A stretch of DNA of 64,000 nt from an uncultured delta proteobacterium (GTDB lineage Bacteria > Desulfobacterota > Desulfuromonadia > Desulfuromonadales > BM103). Each line of letters begins with the position of its first letter. Position 1 is the stretch's first letter. The notes under the pieces were generated by a model. That model had not been told where the DNA came from and did no database searches. It was given only the letters and a program-made list of their open reading frames with translations. Location: contig CAVQRZ010000001.1 of NCBI GenBank assembly GCA_963715335.1, positions 32,001 to 96,000 on the forward strand, read 5' to 3'. The position numbers and the translations under genes are program-made. This document shows, one piece after another, positions 12,921 through 18,762 of this stretch.

Positions 12921-15440
12921 ATGGATGAATTTCTCTCAAAACCGGTACAGGAACAGCTTCGCCAGGAAATCCGGGAATCCGGCGGCAACGAAATCTTCTG
13001 CATCGGCCACACCGATGCCGGACAGGTCGTCATCGACCTGGAGATTCTTGCCCGCGGCAATCGGGAGGCTGTTCCAGCCATCCTGCAATCCTGTCGCCCC
13101 GGCGATGTGGTTATCCACAACCACCCCAGCGGACATCTTGAACCATCCGGGCCTGACCTTGCCATCGCCGGCAGCCTCGGCTCACTGGGGGTCGGCTTCT
13201 ATATTGTCGACAACCGGGTCAAGCAGCTCTACCGGGTCGTCGAGGCTTTCGAGCCGGTCCAAAACCGCGCCGTTGAACACGAACAAGTCTCGGAACTGCT
13301 GGGTGCTGGAGGGCCGGTCAGCGAGAACCTGCCCGGTTTCGAAGATCGGCCTGAGCAGCTGCGCATGGCGTTTGCCGTGGCCGATGCCCTCAACCAGCAT
13401 CGCATCGCTCTGATCGAAGCGGGGACCGGGACCGGCAAAAGCCTTGCTTACCTGGTCCCGGCAATCCTCTGGTCGCTGGCCAACCGCGAAAGACTGGTCA
13501 TTTCGACCAACACCATCAATCTCCAGGAGCAGCTGATTCGCAAGGACCTGCCCTTCCTGCGACGGGCCACTGGCCTGGATTTCCAGGTGGTTCTGGTCAA
13601 GGGTCGATCGAACTATCTCTGCAAACGCCGCCTGGAAAGCGCCACCGCCGAGCCGGGGCTTTTCGACAGCGAGCACATCGGTGAATTGAACGCCTTGCAC
13701 GAGTGGGCAGAACAAACCGGAGACGGCTCACGCGAGGACCTCTCCTTTCTGCCACACACAACGGTCTGGGAAGAAGTCTGCTGTGAAGCCGACCAGTGCA
13801 GCCGCAGCCAGTGCCCGCACTTTGGCAGCTGCTTTTTCCACCAGGCCCGGCGGCAGGCTGCCCGGGCCGACCTCCTGGTGGTCAATCATGCGCTGTTGCT
13901 GGCGGATCTTTCGCTGCGCAGCCAGACCGACAATTATTCCGCCCTCGCTGTCCTGCCGCCATTTTCCCGGCTGATCATCGACGAAGCACATCATCTGGAA
14001 GAAGTCGCAACCCGCTACTTCAGCACCCAGGTCACCCGCTTTGCCTTCGCTCGCACCCTGCACCGCCTGCGCCACCCGCGCAAGCCGCAGCGCGGGCTCC
14101 TGCCACGGCTGCTGGCCCAACTCGGCCGCTCCCTCGACGACAGCCAGGACCGCCTGTACCGCGACCTGCACGAGCAGATTGATGCGCTGACAGTCAAAAA
14201 CCAGCAACTGTTTGATCGAGCGGTCGCCGATCTTGAGCAGGCCGGAATTGACCTGGCAAGCGCGCTTGGCACGGAAATTCGCTCCGGAGAGGAGATCCGG
14301 CAACGCCTGGTTCCGGCCTTTGCCGAGAAGGAGGCCTGGCAGCATACGGTGGGTATGTTACGCAGCCTGGCCCGCAGCACCGGCGAATTCGGCGAACTGC
14401 TCCAGGGGCTTCTCAAGGCTTTACGCAAACTCCCCGACGAGGCCGGCGAGGCAATCCGGTCTCTCGGCACCGACCTGGCCGGCATCAGCCTGCGATTACA
14501 GGCCATGGCCCAGAGTTTACACACCTTCACGATCGATGATCCGCAATCCTGCGCGTGGTTTGAAATCACCCGCGGCCGCATCGGTCGCAGCGAGGGGATC
14601 ATCACCCGGCTCTGCACGGCACCTCTCGTCGTTGCCCCGCTGCTGAGAGACACCTTGCTGGAGCGCATGCAGACCGTGGTCCTGACCAGCGCAACCCTTA
14701 CCGTGGCCGAGCGCTTCGACTACCTGCGCCAGCGGACCGGCCTCAATGAGCTGGAGCCCTCGCGCATTAGCGAACTGCTGCTCGCTTCACCCTTCGACTT
14801 CAGGCAACAGGCTCTGCTGGCCATACCGACTGACATCCCGGAGCCCGGCCAACCAGGTTTTGCTGAAGCCGTTCGAGACTTGACAGAGCAAGCCCTGCTG
14901 GCCGCAGATGGCCGGAGCTTCGTGCTCTTCACCGCCTACAGCATGCTGCGCCGCATCCACGCTGAACTGGCCCCGGGCCTCTCCGCGAAGGGCTACCAGG
15001 TGCTGCGGCAAGGGGAATCGACCCGTCACAACCTGTTGCAGAAATTCAGCCAGGACCCGACCAGCATCCTGTTTGCCACCGACTCTTTCTGGGAGGGGGT
15101 CGACGTGCCGGGCCGCTCCCTGGAGCAGGTCATCATCGCCAGACTGCCATTCAAGGTACCGACGGAACCGGTCCTCGAAGCGCGCGCCGAAGCAATTACC
15201 GCGGCCGGAGGAGACCCGTTCATGGAATACACGGTCCCCCAGGCCGTGATCCGGTTCCGGCAGGGATTCGGCCGCCTGATTCGGCAGAAAACCGACCGCG
15301 GCATCGTCCTGATCCTCGACAGTCGTGTGGTCAGGCGCGGCTACGGACGACTGTTCCTGCGCTCCCTCCCCGACGTGCCGGTCGCGACCATGCCCCGGGT
15401 GGAACTGATGGAGAAGCTCAGGGAATTTTTTAGGGGCTAA
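12921..15440 (+). CDS. DinG/YoaA-family helicase with N-terminal JAB/MPN-like domain
   Basis: EAGTGTGKS, DEAH, Fe-S Cys cluster, FWEGVD, QGFGRLIR; N-terminal HNHPSG..PS..D. Confidence 0.93.
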   Translation: MDEFLSKPVQEQLRQEIRESGGNEIFCIGHTDAGQVVIDLEILARGNREAVPAILQSCRPGDVVIHNHPSGHLEPSGPDLAIAGSLGSLGVGFYIVDNRVKQLYRVVEAFEPVQNRAVEHEQVSELLGAGGPVSENLPGFEDRPEQLRMAFAVADALNQHRIALIEAGTGTGKSLAYLVPAILWSLANRERLVISTNTINLQEQLIRKDLPFLRRATGLDFQVVLVKGRSNYLCKRRLESATAEPGLFDSEHIGELNALHEWAEQTGDGSREDLSFLPHTTVWEEVCCEADQCSRSQCPHFGSCFFHQARRQAARADLLVVNHALLLADLSLRSQTDNYSALAVLPPFSRLIIDEAHHLEEVATRYFSTQVTRFAFARTLHRLRHPRKPQRGLLPRLLAQLGRSLDDSQDRLYRDLHEQIDALTVKNQQLFDRAVADLEQAGIDLASALGTEIRSGEEIRQRLVPAFAEKEAWQHTVGMLRSLARSTGEFGELLQGLLKALRKLPDEAGEAIRSLGTDLAGISLRLQAMAQSLHTFTIDDPQSCAWFEITRGRIGRSEGIITRLCTAPLVVAPLLRDTLLERMQTVVLTSATLTVAERFDYLRQRTGLNELEPSRISELLLASPFDFRQQALLAIPTDIPEPGQPGFAEAVRDLTEQALLAADGRSFVLFTAYSMLRRIHAELAPGLSAKGYQVLRQGESTRHNLLQKFSQDPTSILFATDSFWEGVDVPGRSLEQVIIARLPFKVPTEPVLEARAEAITAAGGDPFMEYTVPQAVIRFRQGFGRLIRQKTDRGIVLILDSRVVRRGYGRLFLRSLPDVPVATMPRVELMEKLREFFRG

Positions 15441-15442
15441 AA

Positions 15443-15578
15443 GAAGTAGCCAGAATTCAGAATTCAGAATCCAGAATAGCCAGTAGCAGTCAGAATTCAG
15501 TAGCCGGTAGCCAGTAGCCATTAGATGTCGGCAAGGTTTGCTTCTCATTCTTGATTCTGAATTCTGGATTCTGGATAC
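15443..15578. repeat. Heptamer (AGAATTC/ATTCTGA-type) tandem repeats in two inverted arms
   Basis: cagaattcagaattcagaatccagaat ... attctgaattctggattctggatactg. Confidence 0.85.
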
Positions 15579-15615
15579 TGCCCCCCTCCCTCGCCACTCA
15601 CTGCACAACAATTGA

Positions 15616-15644
15616 TTGACAATCCGCACCGAGTCGTGATAACA
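15616..15644 (+). promoter_or_regulatory. Putative sigma70 promoter for the alanine leader
   Basis: Perfect TTGACA at 15616-15621; weaker -10 (GATAAC). Confidence 0.55.
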
Positions 15645-15677
15645 GACTGAAACATTAAAAACGCAATGGAGCAGAGC

Positions 15678-15785
15678 ATGATCAGGGCCACCGCAAACAT
15701 CGCAGCAGCAAAAACTGCCCGAGCTAACAGCGCGGCAGCCGCGGCGGCCGCCTGCCGGAGACCTGTCCATTGCCTTGGAAAATGA
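15678..15785 (+). CDS. Alanine-rich leader peptide, 35 aa (MIRATANIAAAKTARANSAAAAAAACRRPVHCLGK)
   Basis: GGAG RBS; 14 of 35 codons Ala, including a run of 7; followed by a terminator and the aminotransferase gene. Confidence 0.85.
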   Translation: MIRATANIAAAKTARANSAAAAAAACRRPVHCLGK

Positions 15786-15804
15786 GTTAACTGTTTACTG
15801 CATC

Positions 15805-15835
15805 AAGGCCATGGGCAAAAGCCCATGGCCTTTTT
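15805..15835 (+). terminator. Attenuator terminator
   Basis: AAGGCCATGGGC-AAAA-GCCCATGGCCTT followed by T-rich tract, 33 nt before the aminotransferase start. Confidence 0.9.
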
Positions 15836-15868
15836 AATTTCAACGGGTAGCACGGGAAGGAAGATTTC

Positions 15869-17182
15869 ATGCGTAACAACATAGTTCATATCGGTGCCGG
15901 TGAGTTGACCTACGAGATCCGCGCCATCGTCGAAATCGCCGATACGCTCAGATCGCTTGGCATCAAGACCAACATGGAGAACATCGGCGACCCGATCGCC
16001 AAAGGGGAAATGATCCCCCAGTGGATGAAACAGATCGTCGCCGACCTCGCCATGCAAGACTGCTCCTACGGCTATTGCGCCACCAAGGGCGTTCCGGAAA
16101 CCCGTGCCTTTCTCGCCGAGATGACCAACCGCCGCGGCAAGGCCCAGGTGACAATCAATGACATCATCTTTTTTAACGGCCTCGGTGATGCGATTCAGAA
16201 GGTTTACGGCCTGCTCAAACGGGAATCGCGCGTCATTGGCCCGACCCCGACCTACTCCACCCATTCTTCCGGCGAAGCGGCGCATGCCGGGCAGAAGCCG
16301 GTCTGCTACAAGCTTGACCCCGACAACAAATGGTATCCTGACATGGACGACCTGCGGCTGTCGATCAAGTACAACCCGGCGATCTCGGGTATCCTGATCA
16401 TCAATCCGGACAACCCGACCGGGGCCGTCTGGCCAGAGCGGATCCTCAAGGAGATGGTCTCCATCGCCAAGGAATTCGATCTCTTCATCATCGCCGACGA
16501 AATCTACCAGAACCTGGTCTACAATGGCGAATCGACCAAGCCGATATCCGACCTGGTTGGCGATGTCCCGGCGATTTCCTTGAAAGGGATCAGCAAGGAA
16601 GTGCCCTGGCCCGGCTCGCGCTGCGGCTGGATGGAAGTCTACAACGCCGATAAGGACCCGATGTTCAAACGCTACATCCAGAGCATCGTCGACTCGAAGA
16701 TGGTCGAGGTCTGCTCCACGACCCTGCCGCAGAAAGCGATTCCGCCGATTCTCAGCCATCCCGAATACCAGGGCTGGCTCACTGAACGGATCGTCCGTTA
16801 CGAGAAGTTTTCCAACATCGCCTACGATATCCTGAAAAAAGTGCCCGGGGTCAAGGTCAACCGGACCAACGGCGCATTCTACATGAGCGTCGCCTTCAGG
16901 GAAGGAGCCCTCAACGACCGTCAGACTTTGCCGATTGAGATCCCCGAAGTACGCGAACTCGTAGAAAACCTGGTCAATCAGCCCGGGGTCTCCCTGGACA
17001 AACGCTTCGTCTACTACCTGTTGGCATCAACCGGAATCTGCGTCGTGCCATTGTCATCCTTTTTCACCCCGGAGCAGGGCTTCCGGATTACCCTGCTGGA
17101 GCGCGATGAAGCGACCTTCACGCGTATATTCGAACAGATTGCAGCCAACATCACCAGGTACCTGGACTCTCACAGCGAATAG
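15869..17182 (+). CDS. PLP-dependent class I/II aminotransferase, AlaA-like (probable alanine-synthesising)
   Basis: YEIR, NIGDP, INPDNPTG, ADEIY, SK..WPGSRCGW; the alanine leader supports the specificity. Confidence 0.88.
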   Translation: MRNNIVHIGAGELTYEIRAIVEIADTLRSLGIKTNMENIGDPIAKGEMIPQWMKQIVADLAMQDCSYGYCATKGVPETRAFLAEMTNRRGKAQVTINDIIFFNGLGDAIQKVYGLLKRESRVIGPTPTYSTHSSGEAAHAGQKPVCYKLDPDNKWYPDMDDLRLSIKYNPAISGILIINPDNPTGAVWPERILKEMVSIAKEFDLFIIADEIYQNLVYNGESTKPISDLVGDVPAISLKGISKEVPWPGSRCGWMEVYNADKDPMFKRYIQSIVDSKMVEVCSTTLPQKAIPPILSHPEYQGWLTERIVRYEKFSNIAYDILKKVPGVKVNRTNGAFYMSVAFREGALNDRQTLPIEIPEVRELVENLVNQPGVSLDKRFVYYLLASTGICVVPLSSFFTPEQGFRITLLERDEATFTRIFEQIAANITRYLDSHSE

Positions 17183-17190
17183 ACTTGAGC

Positions 17191-17222
17191 GAAAAAGGCC
17201 GGCACACAATGTCGGCCTTTTT
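17191..17222 (+). terminator. Intrinsic terminator
   Basis: AAAAAGGCCGGCA-loop-TGTCGGCCTTTTT. Confidence 0.75.
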
Positions 17223-17340
17223 GTTATACTGGACGCGGATGTCATTTTAATCTGTCCGCCATAACGCAGACCTGAACGAGACGACCTGACGCGTCTTGCG
17301 AACACTGCCGGCTTTTTTGATTGGGGCTCCCGACACCTGC

Positions 17341-18762
17341 ATGCTGACACCCAGACTGATAAATCGTGACGCTCTGATTACGTCGCAAAAACAACTGATC
17401 GACTACCTCGCGGCAGGCGCTCGTCCGGAAGCGGATTGGGGGATCGGCGCAGAAATGGAAAAGCTGGTCCTCGACGCACGGACGGGGGCAGCCGCGGAAT
17501 TTTCAAGGATCGAGGCGTTGCTCGCGACACTGGCAGCAACCGGCAACTGGCGGGAGCAGCGGCAAGGCTCCCGGCTGATCGGCCTGCAGGGAGAAACTTC
17601 TTCGATAACGATCGAGCCAGGCGGTCAGTTGGAGTTATCCGGCGAGCTCTGTGCCGACCTGTTCTGCAACTGCAGCGACTTCTCCAGGCATATTGCAAAT
17701 ACCGTCGCGGCCTGCAGGCAATTGGACCTGGTTCTGCTTGGTCTCGGCACGCAGCCTTTCAGCAGCCTCGATGAAATCGAATGGGCACCCAAGGCCCGCT
17801 ACGATATCATGGGCCCTTACATGTTAAAAACCGGCGACATGGGTCAGCGCATGATGAAACAGAGCGCAGGACTCCAGGTCAATCTTGATTTCAGTGACGA
17901 AGCGGACTGCATGAGGAAGCTGCGCCTCGCCCAGTTTCTTGCGCCGTTGCTTTACGGGCTGTTCGCCAACTCGCCACTGCTGGATGGCAAGCCGAGCGGC
18001 TTTTTGAGCACCCGTGGAGAGATCTGGTCGCGAACCGACCCTGACCGGACCGGGCTCCTCCCTTTCCTCGACAAGCCGGATGCCGGTTTTAACGACTACG
18101 TTGAGTACGCCCTCGACATACCGATGTATTTCATTGCCCGCGAGGGGAGCTACCTGGACCTGACCCGCAACCGCTTCAGCTTCCGCGATTTCCTGGAGCA
18201 AGGGCATGCCGGCCAGCATGCAACCATGGCCGACTGGGACCTGCACCTGTCAACCCTGTTTCCGGAGGTTCGCCTGCGGCCACAGGTAGAGGTGCGCTGC
18301 GCCGACAGCCTGCCGCCCCACCTGGTCCTGACCGTCGCCGCCCTGCTCAAGGGTCTCATGTACGATGAGAGCGCCTTCCAGGCCGCGTGGCGCGAGTGTC
18401 AGCTGGACTCTCTCGACGAGATCCGCGCCAGCTGCCGAACAGCCTGGCGCCTGGGGCTGCGAACCCCCTGGAAGGGCGGCACTCTACAGGATTTGGCAAG
18501 GACCTGCCTGGAGCTGGCCCGTGCAGGCCTCGACCGCCAGCAGGTACGACGCGGCCAGGAACGCAGCGAGCGCTGCTTCCTTGACGGCCTCGACACACTG
18601 ATCGAGGGTGGACAGACGCTCGCCGAGCAACTGCTGCAGAACTGGCACGGGGATCGTCAGGAAAAGCTCAAAAAGCTGATCGGCCATTGCGGTTTTTTCG
18701 ACGTTGTCCCGAACCGACCCGGCGAAAACTGTGCAAACACGCAGTTCTCGCCTGCGCGCTGA
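17341..18762 (+). CDS. gshA: Glutamate--cysteine ligase (GCS2, plant/alphaproteobacterial type)
   Basis: IGAEMEK, EPGGQLELSG, PKARY.IM, QVNLD, LFANSP, HLSTLFPEVR, EVR.AD. Confidence 0.88.
   Translation: MLTPRLINRDALITSQKQLIDYLAAGARPEADWGIGAEMEKLVLDARTGAAAEFSRIEALLATLAATGNWREQRQGSRLIGLQGETSSITIEPGGQLELSGELCADLFCNCSDFSRHIANTVAACRQLDLVLLGLGTQPFSSLDEIEWAPKARYDIMGPYMLKTGDMGQRMMKQSAGLQVNLDFSDEADCMRKLRLAQFLAPLLYGLFANSPLLDGKPSGFLSTRGEIWSRTDPDRTGLLPFLDKPDAGFNDYVEYALDIPMYFIAREGSYLDLTRNRFSFRDFLEQGHAGQHATMADWDLHLSTLFPEVRLRPQVEVRCADSLPPHLVLTVAALLKGLMYDESAFQAAWRECQLDSLDEIRASCRTAWRLGLRTPWKGGTLQDLARTCLELARAGLDRQQVRRGQERSERCFLDGLDTLIEGGQTLAEQLLQNWHGDRQEKLKKLIGHCGFFDVVPNRPGENCANTQFSPAR

Follow-up and report, generated by a model that had tools for sequence, protein, structure and literature searches.

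A probable alanine-reading leader-peptide attenuator upstream of an AlaA-like aminotransferase gene in Desulfuromonadia

Can the supply of alanine control a bacterial gene through a leader peptide? The question is raised by a locus in a 64,000-nucleotide stretch of DNA from an uncultured delta proteobacterium of the Desulfuromonadales (contig CAVQRZ010000001.1, positions 32,001 to 96,000 of the forward strand). This whole stretch is called the window hereafter, and coordinates refer to it unless another contig is named. At 15616-17182, on the + strand, a promoter-like sequence is followed by an alanine-rich upstream open reading frame (uORF), an intrinsic terminator and the gene of an AlaA-like, pyridoxal phosphate (PLP)-dependent aminotransferase. 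A previous reading of the window, made from the sequence only, had proposed that these elements form an attenuator.

The classical leader-peptide attenuators are trpL, hisL, leuL, thrL, ilvL/ivbL and pheL of the enterobacteria. To our knowledge, alanine is not among the amino acids of the textbook cis-acting attenuators, and the control of alanine biosynthesis is, as far as we know, poorly understood outside Escherichia coli and mycobacteria. We followed up the proposal by comparing the locus with its orthologs. The leader is probably a ribosome-mediated transcription attenuator of the leader-peptide kind, which would read the supply of charged alanyl-tRNA and control the downstream aminotransferase gene; most likely it would turn the enzyme on when alanine is short.

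The leader and its two competing helices

Rereading of the sequence showed that all the coordinates of the sequence-only reading were right. The TTGACA promoter that it had named lies at 15616-15621 and is conserved, in the form TTGAC(A/T), in 39 of 40 orthologous leaders, and its ribosome-binding site and 35-codon ORF, with 14 alanine codons and a run of seven ending at 15752, could be read directly. Its 12-bp terminator just before the gene was recovered by a terminator scan (stem 15805-15832, 12 pairs of which 8 are G-C, a loop of 4 and a T-run). Finally, a strand near the end of the uORF, which we call region 2 (TGTCCATTGCCTTG), had been said to pair with the 5' arm of this terminator, and 13 of its 14 positions can indeed pair with CAAGGCCATGGGCA (15804-15817), one of them as G-U, the remaining one being a U.C mismatch. 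Region 2 begins 11 nt after the last alanine codon and ends 5 nt before the stop codon, and close relatives have the same spacing between alanine run, region 2 and stop.

In the mechanism that we propose, transcription would begin at the conserved promoter, probably near 15652-15654, and a ribosome would load at the GGAG/ATG pair (15668/15678) and translate the leader. With alanine plentiful, the ribosome would reach the TGA at 15783 and cover region 2 (15764-15777), the 12-bp hairpin at 15805-15832 would form, and RNA polymerase would terminate in the T-run before the gene. With alanyl-tRNA scarce, the ribosome would stall in the alanine-rich stretch, chiefly in the seven-codon run at 15732-15752, its front edge remaining short of 15764; region 2, left free, would then pair with 15804-15817, the terminator would not form and the aminotransferase gene would be transcribed. 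The footprint of a bacterial ribosome reaches some 9 nt ahead of the A-site codon and some 12-15 nt back from the P site, and the distances in the leader, both for the stall and for the stop, match it.

The two states on which the sequence-only reading depends both appeared on folding. In the fold of the complete leader (-71 kcal/mol, z = -3.2) the terminator is present and region 2 pairs with the Shine-Dalgarno (SD) region; once the sequence is shortened to end before the terminator 3' arm, region 2 is paired with the 5' arm (15804-15817) instead.

The orthologous leaders were collected by a scan of species-representative genomes, in which the best 80 of 224 relatives were taken. All loci with at least 72% protein identity were kept, leaving out L017 (cut at the 5' end of the gene) and the duplicates L031 and L036. 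This gave 40 distinct leaders, 39 from relatives of the same order and one from a locus titled Deferrisomatales. Two alignments were built, A1 with these 40 leaders and A2 with 55 sequences, namely A1 plus 15 leaders from other orders; L116, L128 and L129, whose terminator was not located by the pattern, and L124 and L126, without leader, were left out of A2.

Compensatory changes, which the sequence-only reading had expected as covarying stems, were observed directly in both alternative helices. For the terminator, 98.7% of the cells are paired in A1 with 5 pairs doubly changed, and 96.1% in A2 with 8 pairs and 34 cells doubly changed; none of 500 shuffles reached these values in either alignment, counts that here and below overstate significance and independence, as the sequences share ancestry. 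The antiterminator is paired in 82.9% of the A1 cells, against 32-50% in slid controls (3/500 shuffles reach it), and in 77.3% of the A2 cells, against 34-49%. Its 39 doubly changed cells in A2 and its covariation score of 0.261, versus 0.211, were both reached by 0/500 shuffles. One A2 column of the 5' arm (column 87), where A is replaced by G, is followed by both of its partners: with the 3' arm it forms A-U in 38 sequences and G-C in 14, and with region 2 the pairs are U-A in 33 and C-G in 13. Covariation of a single column with two partners is the pattern expected of two mutually exclusive helices. The mismatch in the middle of the antiterminator is retained at the same place in 52 of 54 rows, and the antiterminator therefore stays weaker than the terminator.

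The sequence elements, which are established directly, are collected in Table 1.

Table 1. Elements of the leader and flanking genes, in window coordinates
Feature	Position	Strand	Basis or conservation
-35 box, TTGACA	15616-15621	+	sequence; TTGAC(A/T) retained in 39/40 orthologous leaders
Extended -10, TG-a-TAACAG, non-canonical (TAACAG at 15640-15645); spacer 18 nt	15637-15645	+	sequence
T(G/A)nTA pattern of the -10	15637-15645	+	retained with equal spacing in 39/40 leaders
Leader SD, GGAG, 6 nt upstream of the ATG	15668-15671	+	SD-like motif at -16 to -4 in 39/40 leaders
Leader ORF, MIRATANIAAAKTARANSAAAAAAACRRPVHCLGK, 35 codons + TGA, 14 Ala; ATG at 15678	15678-15785	+	
Core, CGAGCTAACAGCGC, codons R-A-N-S-A, inside the leader ORF	15720-15733	+	third positions retained too
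Run of 7 Ala codons, GCG GCA GCC GCG GCG GCC GCC, proposed stall site	15732-15752	+	
Region 2, antiterminator 5' strand, TGTCCATTGCCTTG, within the uORF, codons V-H-C-L	15764-15777	+	
Leader stop, TGA, 19 nt upstream of the terminator stem	15783-15785	+	
Region 3, terminator 5' arm, AAGGCCATGGGC, common to antiterminator and terminator	15805-15816	+	
Terminator 3' arm (region 4, 15821-15832), GCCCATGGCCTT, then T-rich tail, TTTAATTT	15821-15839	+	
PLP-dependent class-I aminotransferase, 437 aa, PRK06855, AlaA-like	15869-17182	+	NCBIfam profile, structure matches
DinG/YoaA-type helicase gene, upstream neighbour of the leader	12921-15440		

Conservation, coding signature and spread of the leader

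Conservation of the locus was likewise observed directly. A strong aminotransferase ortholog was found in the genomes of 39 of 41 relatives; the other two genomes, one of them 86% complete, gave weak paralog matches only. A promoter pair of the form TTGAC-N13-17-T(G/A)nTA is retained in 39/40 orthologous leaders. A consensus promoter scan of the locus called 0 promoters, because the -10 box is non-canonical. Every one of the 40 distinct leaders has a GGCCATGG-type terminator, and by the count of our script their alanine-richest frame is an ORF of 26-41 codons with 6-15 alanines, which ends 19-36 nt before the terminator. Since the leader frame had been picked by its alanine content, all three frames were compared. 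We asked which of them run up to the terminator as an ORF that opens with ATG or GTG behind an SD-like motif and is 20 codons or longer; 39/40 alanine frames do so, and 0/80 of the others. The alanine-rich uORF, whose conservation in orthologs the sequence-only reading had made a matter to check, is conserved in this frame-specific way together with its SD. The ORF listing of the window also gave a frame of 39 codons from the ATG at 15666. No SD precedes this ATG, and orthologs do not retain it (GTG in L006, ACG in L009); the 35-codon frame was preferred for these reasons.

Alanine is the commonest residue in 40/40 leaders of the order, in 16/16 leaders of other orders and in 5/5 of a third, Desulfatiglandales-type set described below. 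Its pooled fraction is 0.32, 0.36 and 0.37 in these three sets, versus 0.095 in the proteome, an excess of 3.3-fold for the leaders of the order. At the 9.5% alanine of the genome's long ORFs, a 35-codon frame would contain 14 or more alanines with a probability of 1.6e-6. The 3.3-Mb genome has, counting both strands, four runs of seven or more GCN triplets. When the genome was scanned for short ORFs that contain a residue run and lie ahead of a terminator, 25 matches came up, and among them only the leader at 15678-15785 has a long alanine run directly before a gene. Another candidate, a valine-rich ORF with a terminator on contig C1 (26930-26956, - strand), was rejected as a leader, as it lies inside a 148-codon ORF. 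The leader is single-copy in the genome (nhmmer self match 1.1e-40, next match 0.21), and its core motif occurs once.

A coding signature was directly observed in the codon-position entropies of the 13 leaders with exactly 35 codons. In the alanine block (codons 19-25) the first two positions show little variation (0-0.39 bits), the exceptions being position 1 of codons 24-25 (1.15 bits) and position 2 of codon 24 (0.62 bits); the third position goes up to 1.83 bits, with all four bases occurring. In the region 2 codons GTC CAT TGC CTT conservation covers every position, the third included, as would be expected of a strand that has to pair. Codon choice in the 40 leaders is also particular: GCG and GCA together make up 269 of the 416 alanine codons versus 97 of 416 for GCC, the codon that accounts for 46% of the alanine codons in the genome's long ORFs. 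One tRNA-Ala isoacceptor may perhaps be the species sensed.

All 121 of the genomes sampled from the class have the aminotransferase, and the same leader device was found at 18 of 20 loci from its other orders (60-68% protein identity). It consists there of a uORF, region 2 and a GGCCGTGG-type terminator; the uORFs have 5-13 alanines (9-13 in 15 of the 16 scored) and share the motif ARAISAAA..AAG.PAA. At the other two loci, L124 and L126, a leader was not found in the upstream region. In the leaders of the set L111-L130 the ATG of the uORF lies only 9-11 nt past the -10 box (TGnTATT), and these uORFs may be leaderless or nearly so.

A leader of unrelated sequence precedes the orthologous gene at five further loci (Desulfatiglandales, NaphS2 and a metagenome-assembled genome of Desulfobacteraceae; 62-66% identity). 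Its frame reads MSDE(A)3-8TVPVVLGG..., with an alanine count that varies by whole codons, and a 14-bp antiterminator (-23.6 to -32.8 kcal/mol) is followed by two tandem terminators. Upstream of the Desulfobulbales-type and Syntrophales/Smithella-type orthologs neither an alanine-rich uORF nor a terminator was seen, and the device therefore does not accompany the enzyme everywhere.

Two variations in the layout of the leaders were observed. In L012, L018, L024, L025, L027 and L029 a small G-C hairpin separates region 2 from the terminator and has the stop codon of the uORF in its loop, and all five Desulfatiglandales-type leaders (L044, L051-L054) have the same stop-codon hairpin (examples: GGGGGGAUAACCCCC and GAUGGCAUAAACCAUC). 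In L004, L007, L013, L014, L015, L021 and L022, 110-326 nt are inserted between the terminator and the start of the aminotransferase gene. Some of these inserts carry inverted repeats of their own, and a second promoter within them would bypass the attenuator.

Points against the proposed attenuator, and competing explanations

Several observations, besides the shared ancestry mentioned above, weigh against an alanine attenuator. The duplex energies of the antiterminator are modest (mean z -1.8, with z below -2 in 18/40 leaders), and in 29/40 the best duplex with the 5' arm falls in the final 30 nt of the uORF. The classical anti-antiterminator, a 1:2 helix, was not confirmed; pairing between the SD and region 2 amounts to 64%, a value reached by 67 of 500 shuffles. 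Terminator-like sites in 15300-17400 number 2, not above the 2.1 of shuffled sequence, and the weight of the terminator rests on its strength and conservation and not on the count of such sites. Alanine is not the only residue in excess in the leaders of the order, cysteine being enriched 3.5-fold and arginine 1.6-fold, partly forced by region 2; the cysteine excess comes largely from the TGC inside it. Some lineages are poor in alanine and have short runs, for example 6 of 27 residues in L055 and 7 of 33 in L030. The third codon positions of the core CGAGCTAnCAGCGC are conserved, which coding alone does not explain.

Metatranscriptome contigs, all of them from relatives, cover 0.05-0.12 of the sampled words of the stretch; nothing follows from the parts that lack coverage, and transcript ends are not readable in the contigs. 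One contig from an RNA library (X3 record 6, 196 nt, 14 differences) spans 15728 through the terminator to 15923. It is compatible with read-through, as a weak hint that has to be set against its origin from a relative and against possible carry-over of DNA.

With respect to the enzyme, an alanine dehydrogenase gene is present on contig C22 (38307-39416; 499.5 bits on TIGR00518, cut-off 391.85), and the aminotransferase therefore need not be the sole alanine route. The dehydrogenase is a possible second route to or from alanine.

Among the competing explanations, the one that survives best is a switch built of the same parts with a wider input. The uORF and terminator would then form a general sensor of slowed translation, answering any amino-acid shortage or ribosome-targeting stress, as is reported of whiB7 or of uORFs that sense antibiotics, and not alanine in particular. 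About two thirds of the leader residues are not alanine, and stalls elsewhere upstream of region 2 could free it too; moreover, the mycobacterial whiB7 uORF answers when any of many amino acids runs short, as its codon content dictates (PMC10274678). We nevertheless consider a general sensor unlikely: all 61 leaders, which fall into three unrelated sequence types, have alanine as their commonest residue, the runs vary in length by whole codons yet remain alanine, and the controlled gene codes for an AlaA-like aminotransferase and not for a stress factor.

A second explanation takes the peptide out of the mechanism. The terminator would be governed by a folded RNA acting in cis, such as a riboswitch or the binding site of an RNA-binding protein, and the GC-rich sequence would read as alanine by chance. 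Its best argument is the core CGAGCTA(A/T)CAGCGC (15720-15733; L001-L030, L111-L130), which shows identity at the nucleotide level in most leaders across orders, third codon positions included, and which holds the minor arginine codon CGA (9.8% of arginine codons). In other orders the alanine codons also flank a hairpin of the form GCGGCG-loop-CGCCGC. Nevertheless, RNAalifold found no conserved structure in the uORF part and gave the terminator alone as consensus, which argues against an aptamer-like fold upstream. A small hairpin drawn over the core was rejected, as covariation does not support it (65.7% paired, versus 53-55% at slides of -3 and +3). Rfam 15, whose library includes the leader families of the classical attenuators, offered no counterpart either: a cmscan of 15300-16000 at E <= 10 gave two chance-level matches only, both upstream of the leader. 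The ORF, its start and its SD occur together in a single frame only (39/40 versus 0/80), the third positions of the alanine run take all four bases, and in another order an unrelated alanine-run leader precedes the ortholog. Control by a structured RNA is thus very improbable.

In the weakest alternative the hairpin has no regulatory part and is simply a terminator or insulator that lies between the helicase and aminotransferase genes, the small ORF being untranslated. This explanation may draw on the frequency of strong intrinsic terminators in intergenic regions, on a count of terminator-like sites not above shuffles and on the seven orthologs whose terminator-gene gap leaves room for a second promoter. 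It is hardly credible given that a conserved promoter between the helicase gene and the leader would make the hairpin stop its own transcript, that the helicase gene has its own long inverted repeat downstream, that region 2 covaries with the terminator arm and that the terminator remains linked to the aminotransferase gene across the whole class.

We therefore retain the alanine attenuator. The classical attenuator geometry and the antitermination proposed in the sequence-only reading are supported; apart from the 1:2 helix, every testable sequence-level feature of the classical type is present and conserved.

The aminotransferase, neighbouring features and known systems

The aminotransferase scores 740 bits, against a cut-off of 443, on the NCBIfam model NF005334 (PRK06855), whose name is 'PLP-dependent aminotransferase'. 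On the archaeal alanine aminotransferase model NF006230 it stays below the cut-off (172.5 versus 534 bits). Among solved structures, the closest by sequence are E. coli AlaA (4cvq, 4.7e-44) and the Pyrococcus furiosus enzyme (1xi9, 8.4e-43), over about 330 residues. Automatic names of close homologs are alanine transaminase or alanine-synthesising transaminase, and elsewhere aspartate, methionine or tyrosine aminotransferase. Four paralogous aminotransferases of the genome were scanned; they belong to other families, none of them to an AlaA-type equivalog. We infer that the enzyme makes alanine, the alanine leader being the strongest argument; the homology to AlaA and the automatic names point the same way.

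A broader picture can be drawn tentatively; we find it quite possible and stop short of favouring it. Ancient, class-wide and alanine-specific attenuators might control the PRK06855 aminotransferase, and the unrelated leader of the Desulfatiglandales type might have arisen separately, and both would then mark the widespread PRK06855 family as the one with which these anaerobes make alanine in a regulated way. An added pause or stall element, unlike anything in the classical attenuators, might be provided by the invariant core CGAGCUAnCAGCGC, which contains the minor codon CGA.

If the attenuator works as proposed, the alanine codons of the leader provide a sequence-based functional label for PRK06855, a large uncharacterised family. 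The model is simple, and the group in which it can be tested counts metal-reducing bacteria amenable to genetics among its members. The presence of two unrelated alanine-run leaders before the same gene in different orders would indicate that the logic of attenuation evolves readily.

Some neighbouring features deserve mention. The stretch from the helicase stop codon to the leader promoter contains, at 15445-15579, a long but imperfect inverted repeat made up of the 7-nt units CAGAATT, CAGAATC and TAGCCAG; its arms of 33 nt are 91% complementary, and its RNA fold has an energy of -50.6 kcal/mol (z = -4.4). The repeat may act as the terminator of the helicase gene or may be a small repeat element. 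Further repeat hairpins lie near the leader in relatives, for example in L007 and L040. Downstream, the aminotransferase gene is followed by a hairpin and T-run (about 17194-17222) and then by the next gene (17296-18762), a homolog of the plant-type glutamate-cysteine ligase (388 bits on TIGR01436, below the cut-off of 463).

Compared with the classical attenuators, the leader has the same overall plan. A short, translated-looking leader with a cluster of cognate codons precedes an intrinsic terminator that lies before the first structural gene, the antiterminator strand overlaps the end of the leader and competes for the terminator 5' arm, and the regulatory codons are placed so that a stalled ribosome would leave the antiterminator strand free. 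It differs from them in that its codons are those of alanine, in that a single aminotransferase gene would be regulated, in that a conserved 1:2 helix was not found, in its lack of any sequence or Rfam relation to them, and in its hosts, which are Desulfuromonadia and Desulfatiglandales-type bacteria. The enzyme is a class-I PLP aminotransferase like E. coli AlaA, a glutamate-pyruvate aminotransferase, and like the alanine aminotransferase of P. furiosus; unlike these two it falls in a separate NCBIfam equivalog, PRK06855, and its substrate is predicted from sequence.

The closest functional parallel is the mycobacterial whiB7 uORF. This uORF is described as enriched in alanine and variable in sequence between species, stalling on it is held to give antitermination, and its response reportedly extends to many amino acids and to antibiotics (PMC10274678). 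The sequence-only reading had stated that it knew of no characterised alanine leader attenuator; the statement is outdated, as the whiB7 uORF is one, acting via a transcription factor. The two systems have in common an alanine-enriched uORF and a functional tie to an alanine-synthesising aminotransferase, which is aspC in the whiB7 case (PMC10274678). They differ in that WhiB7 is a transcription factor acting on aspC and on resistance genes and the switch described here stands directly before the aminotransferase gene; the phyla are different, and no sequence similarity was seen.

Within the full-text literature covered by our search, which leaves subscription journals outside, no alanine leader attenuator was found described before an aminotransferase or in Geobacter-type bacteria, and the whiB7 uORF was the sole precedent that it brought up. 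The leader would add an alanine member to the well-known leader-peptide kind of attenuator, one that is spread over a whole class and has an analogue of unrelated sequence elsewhere.

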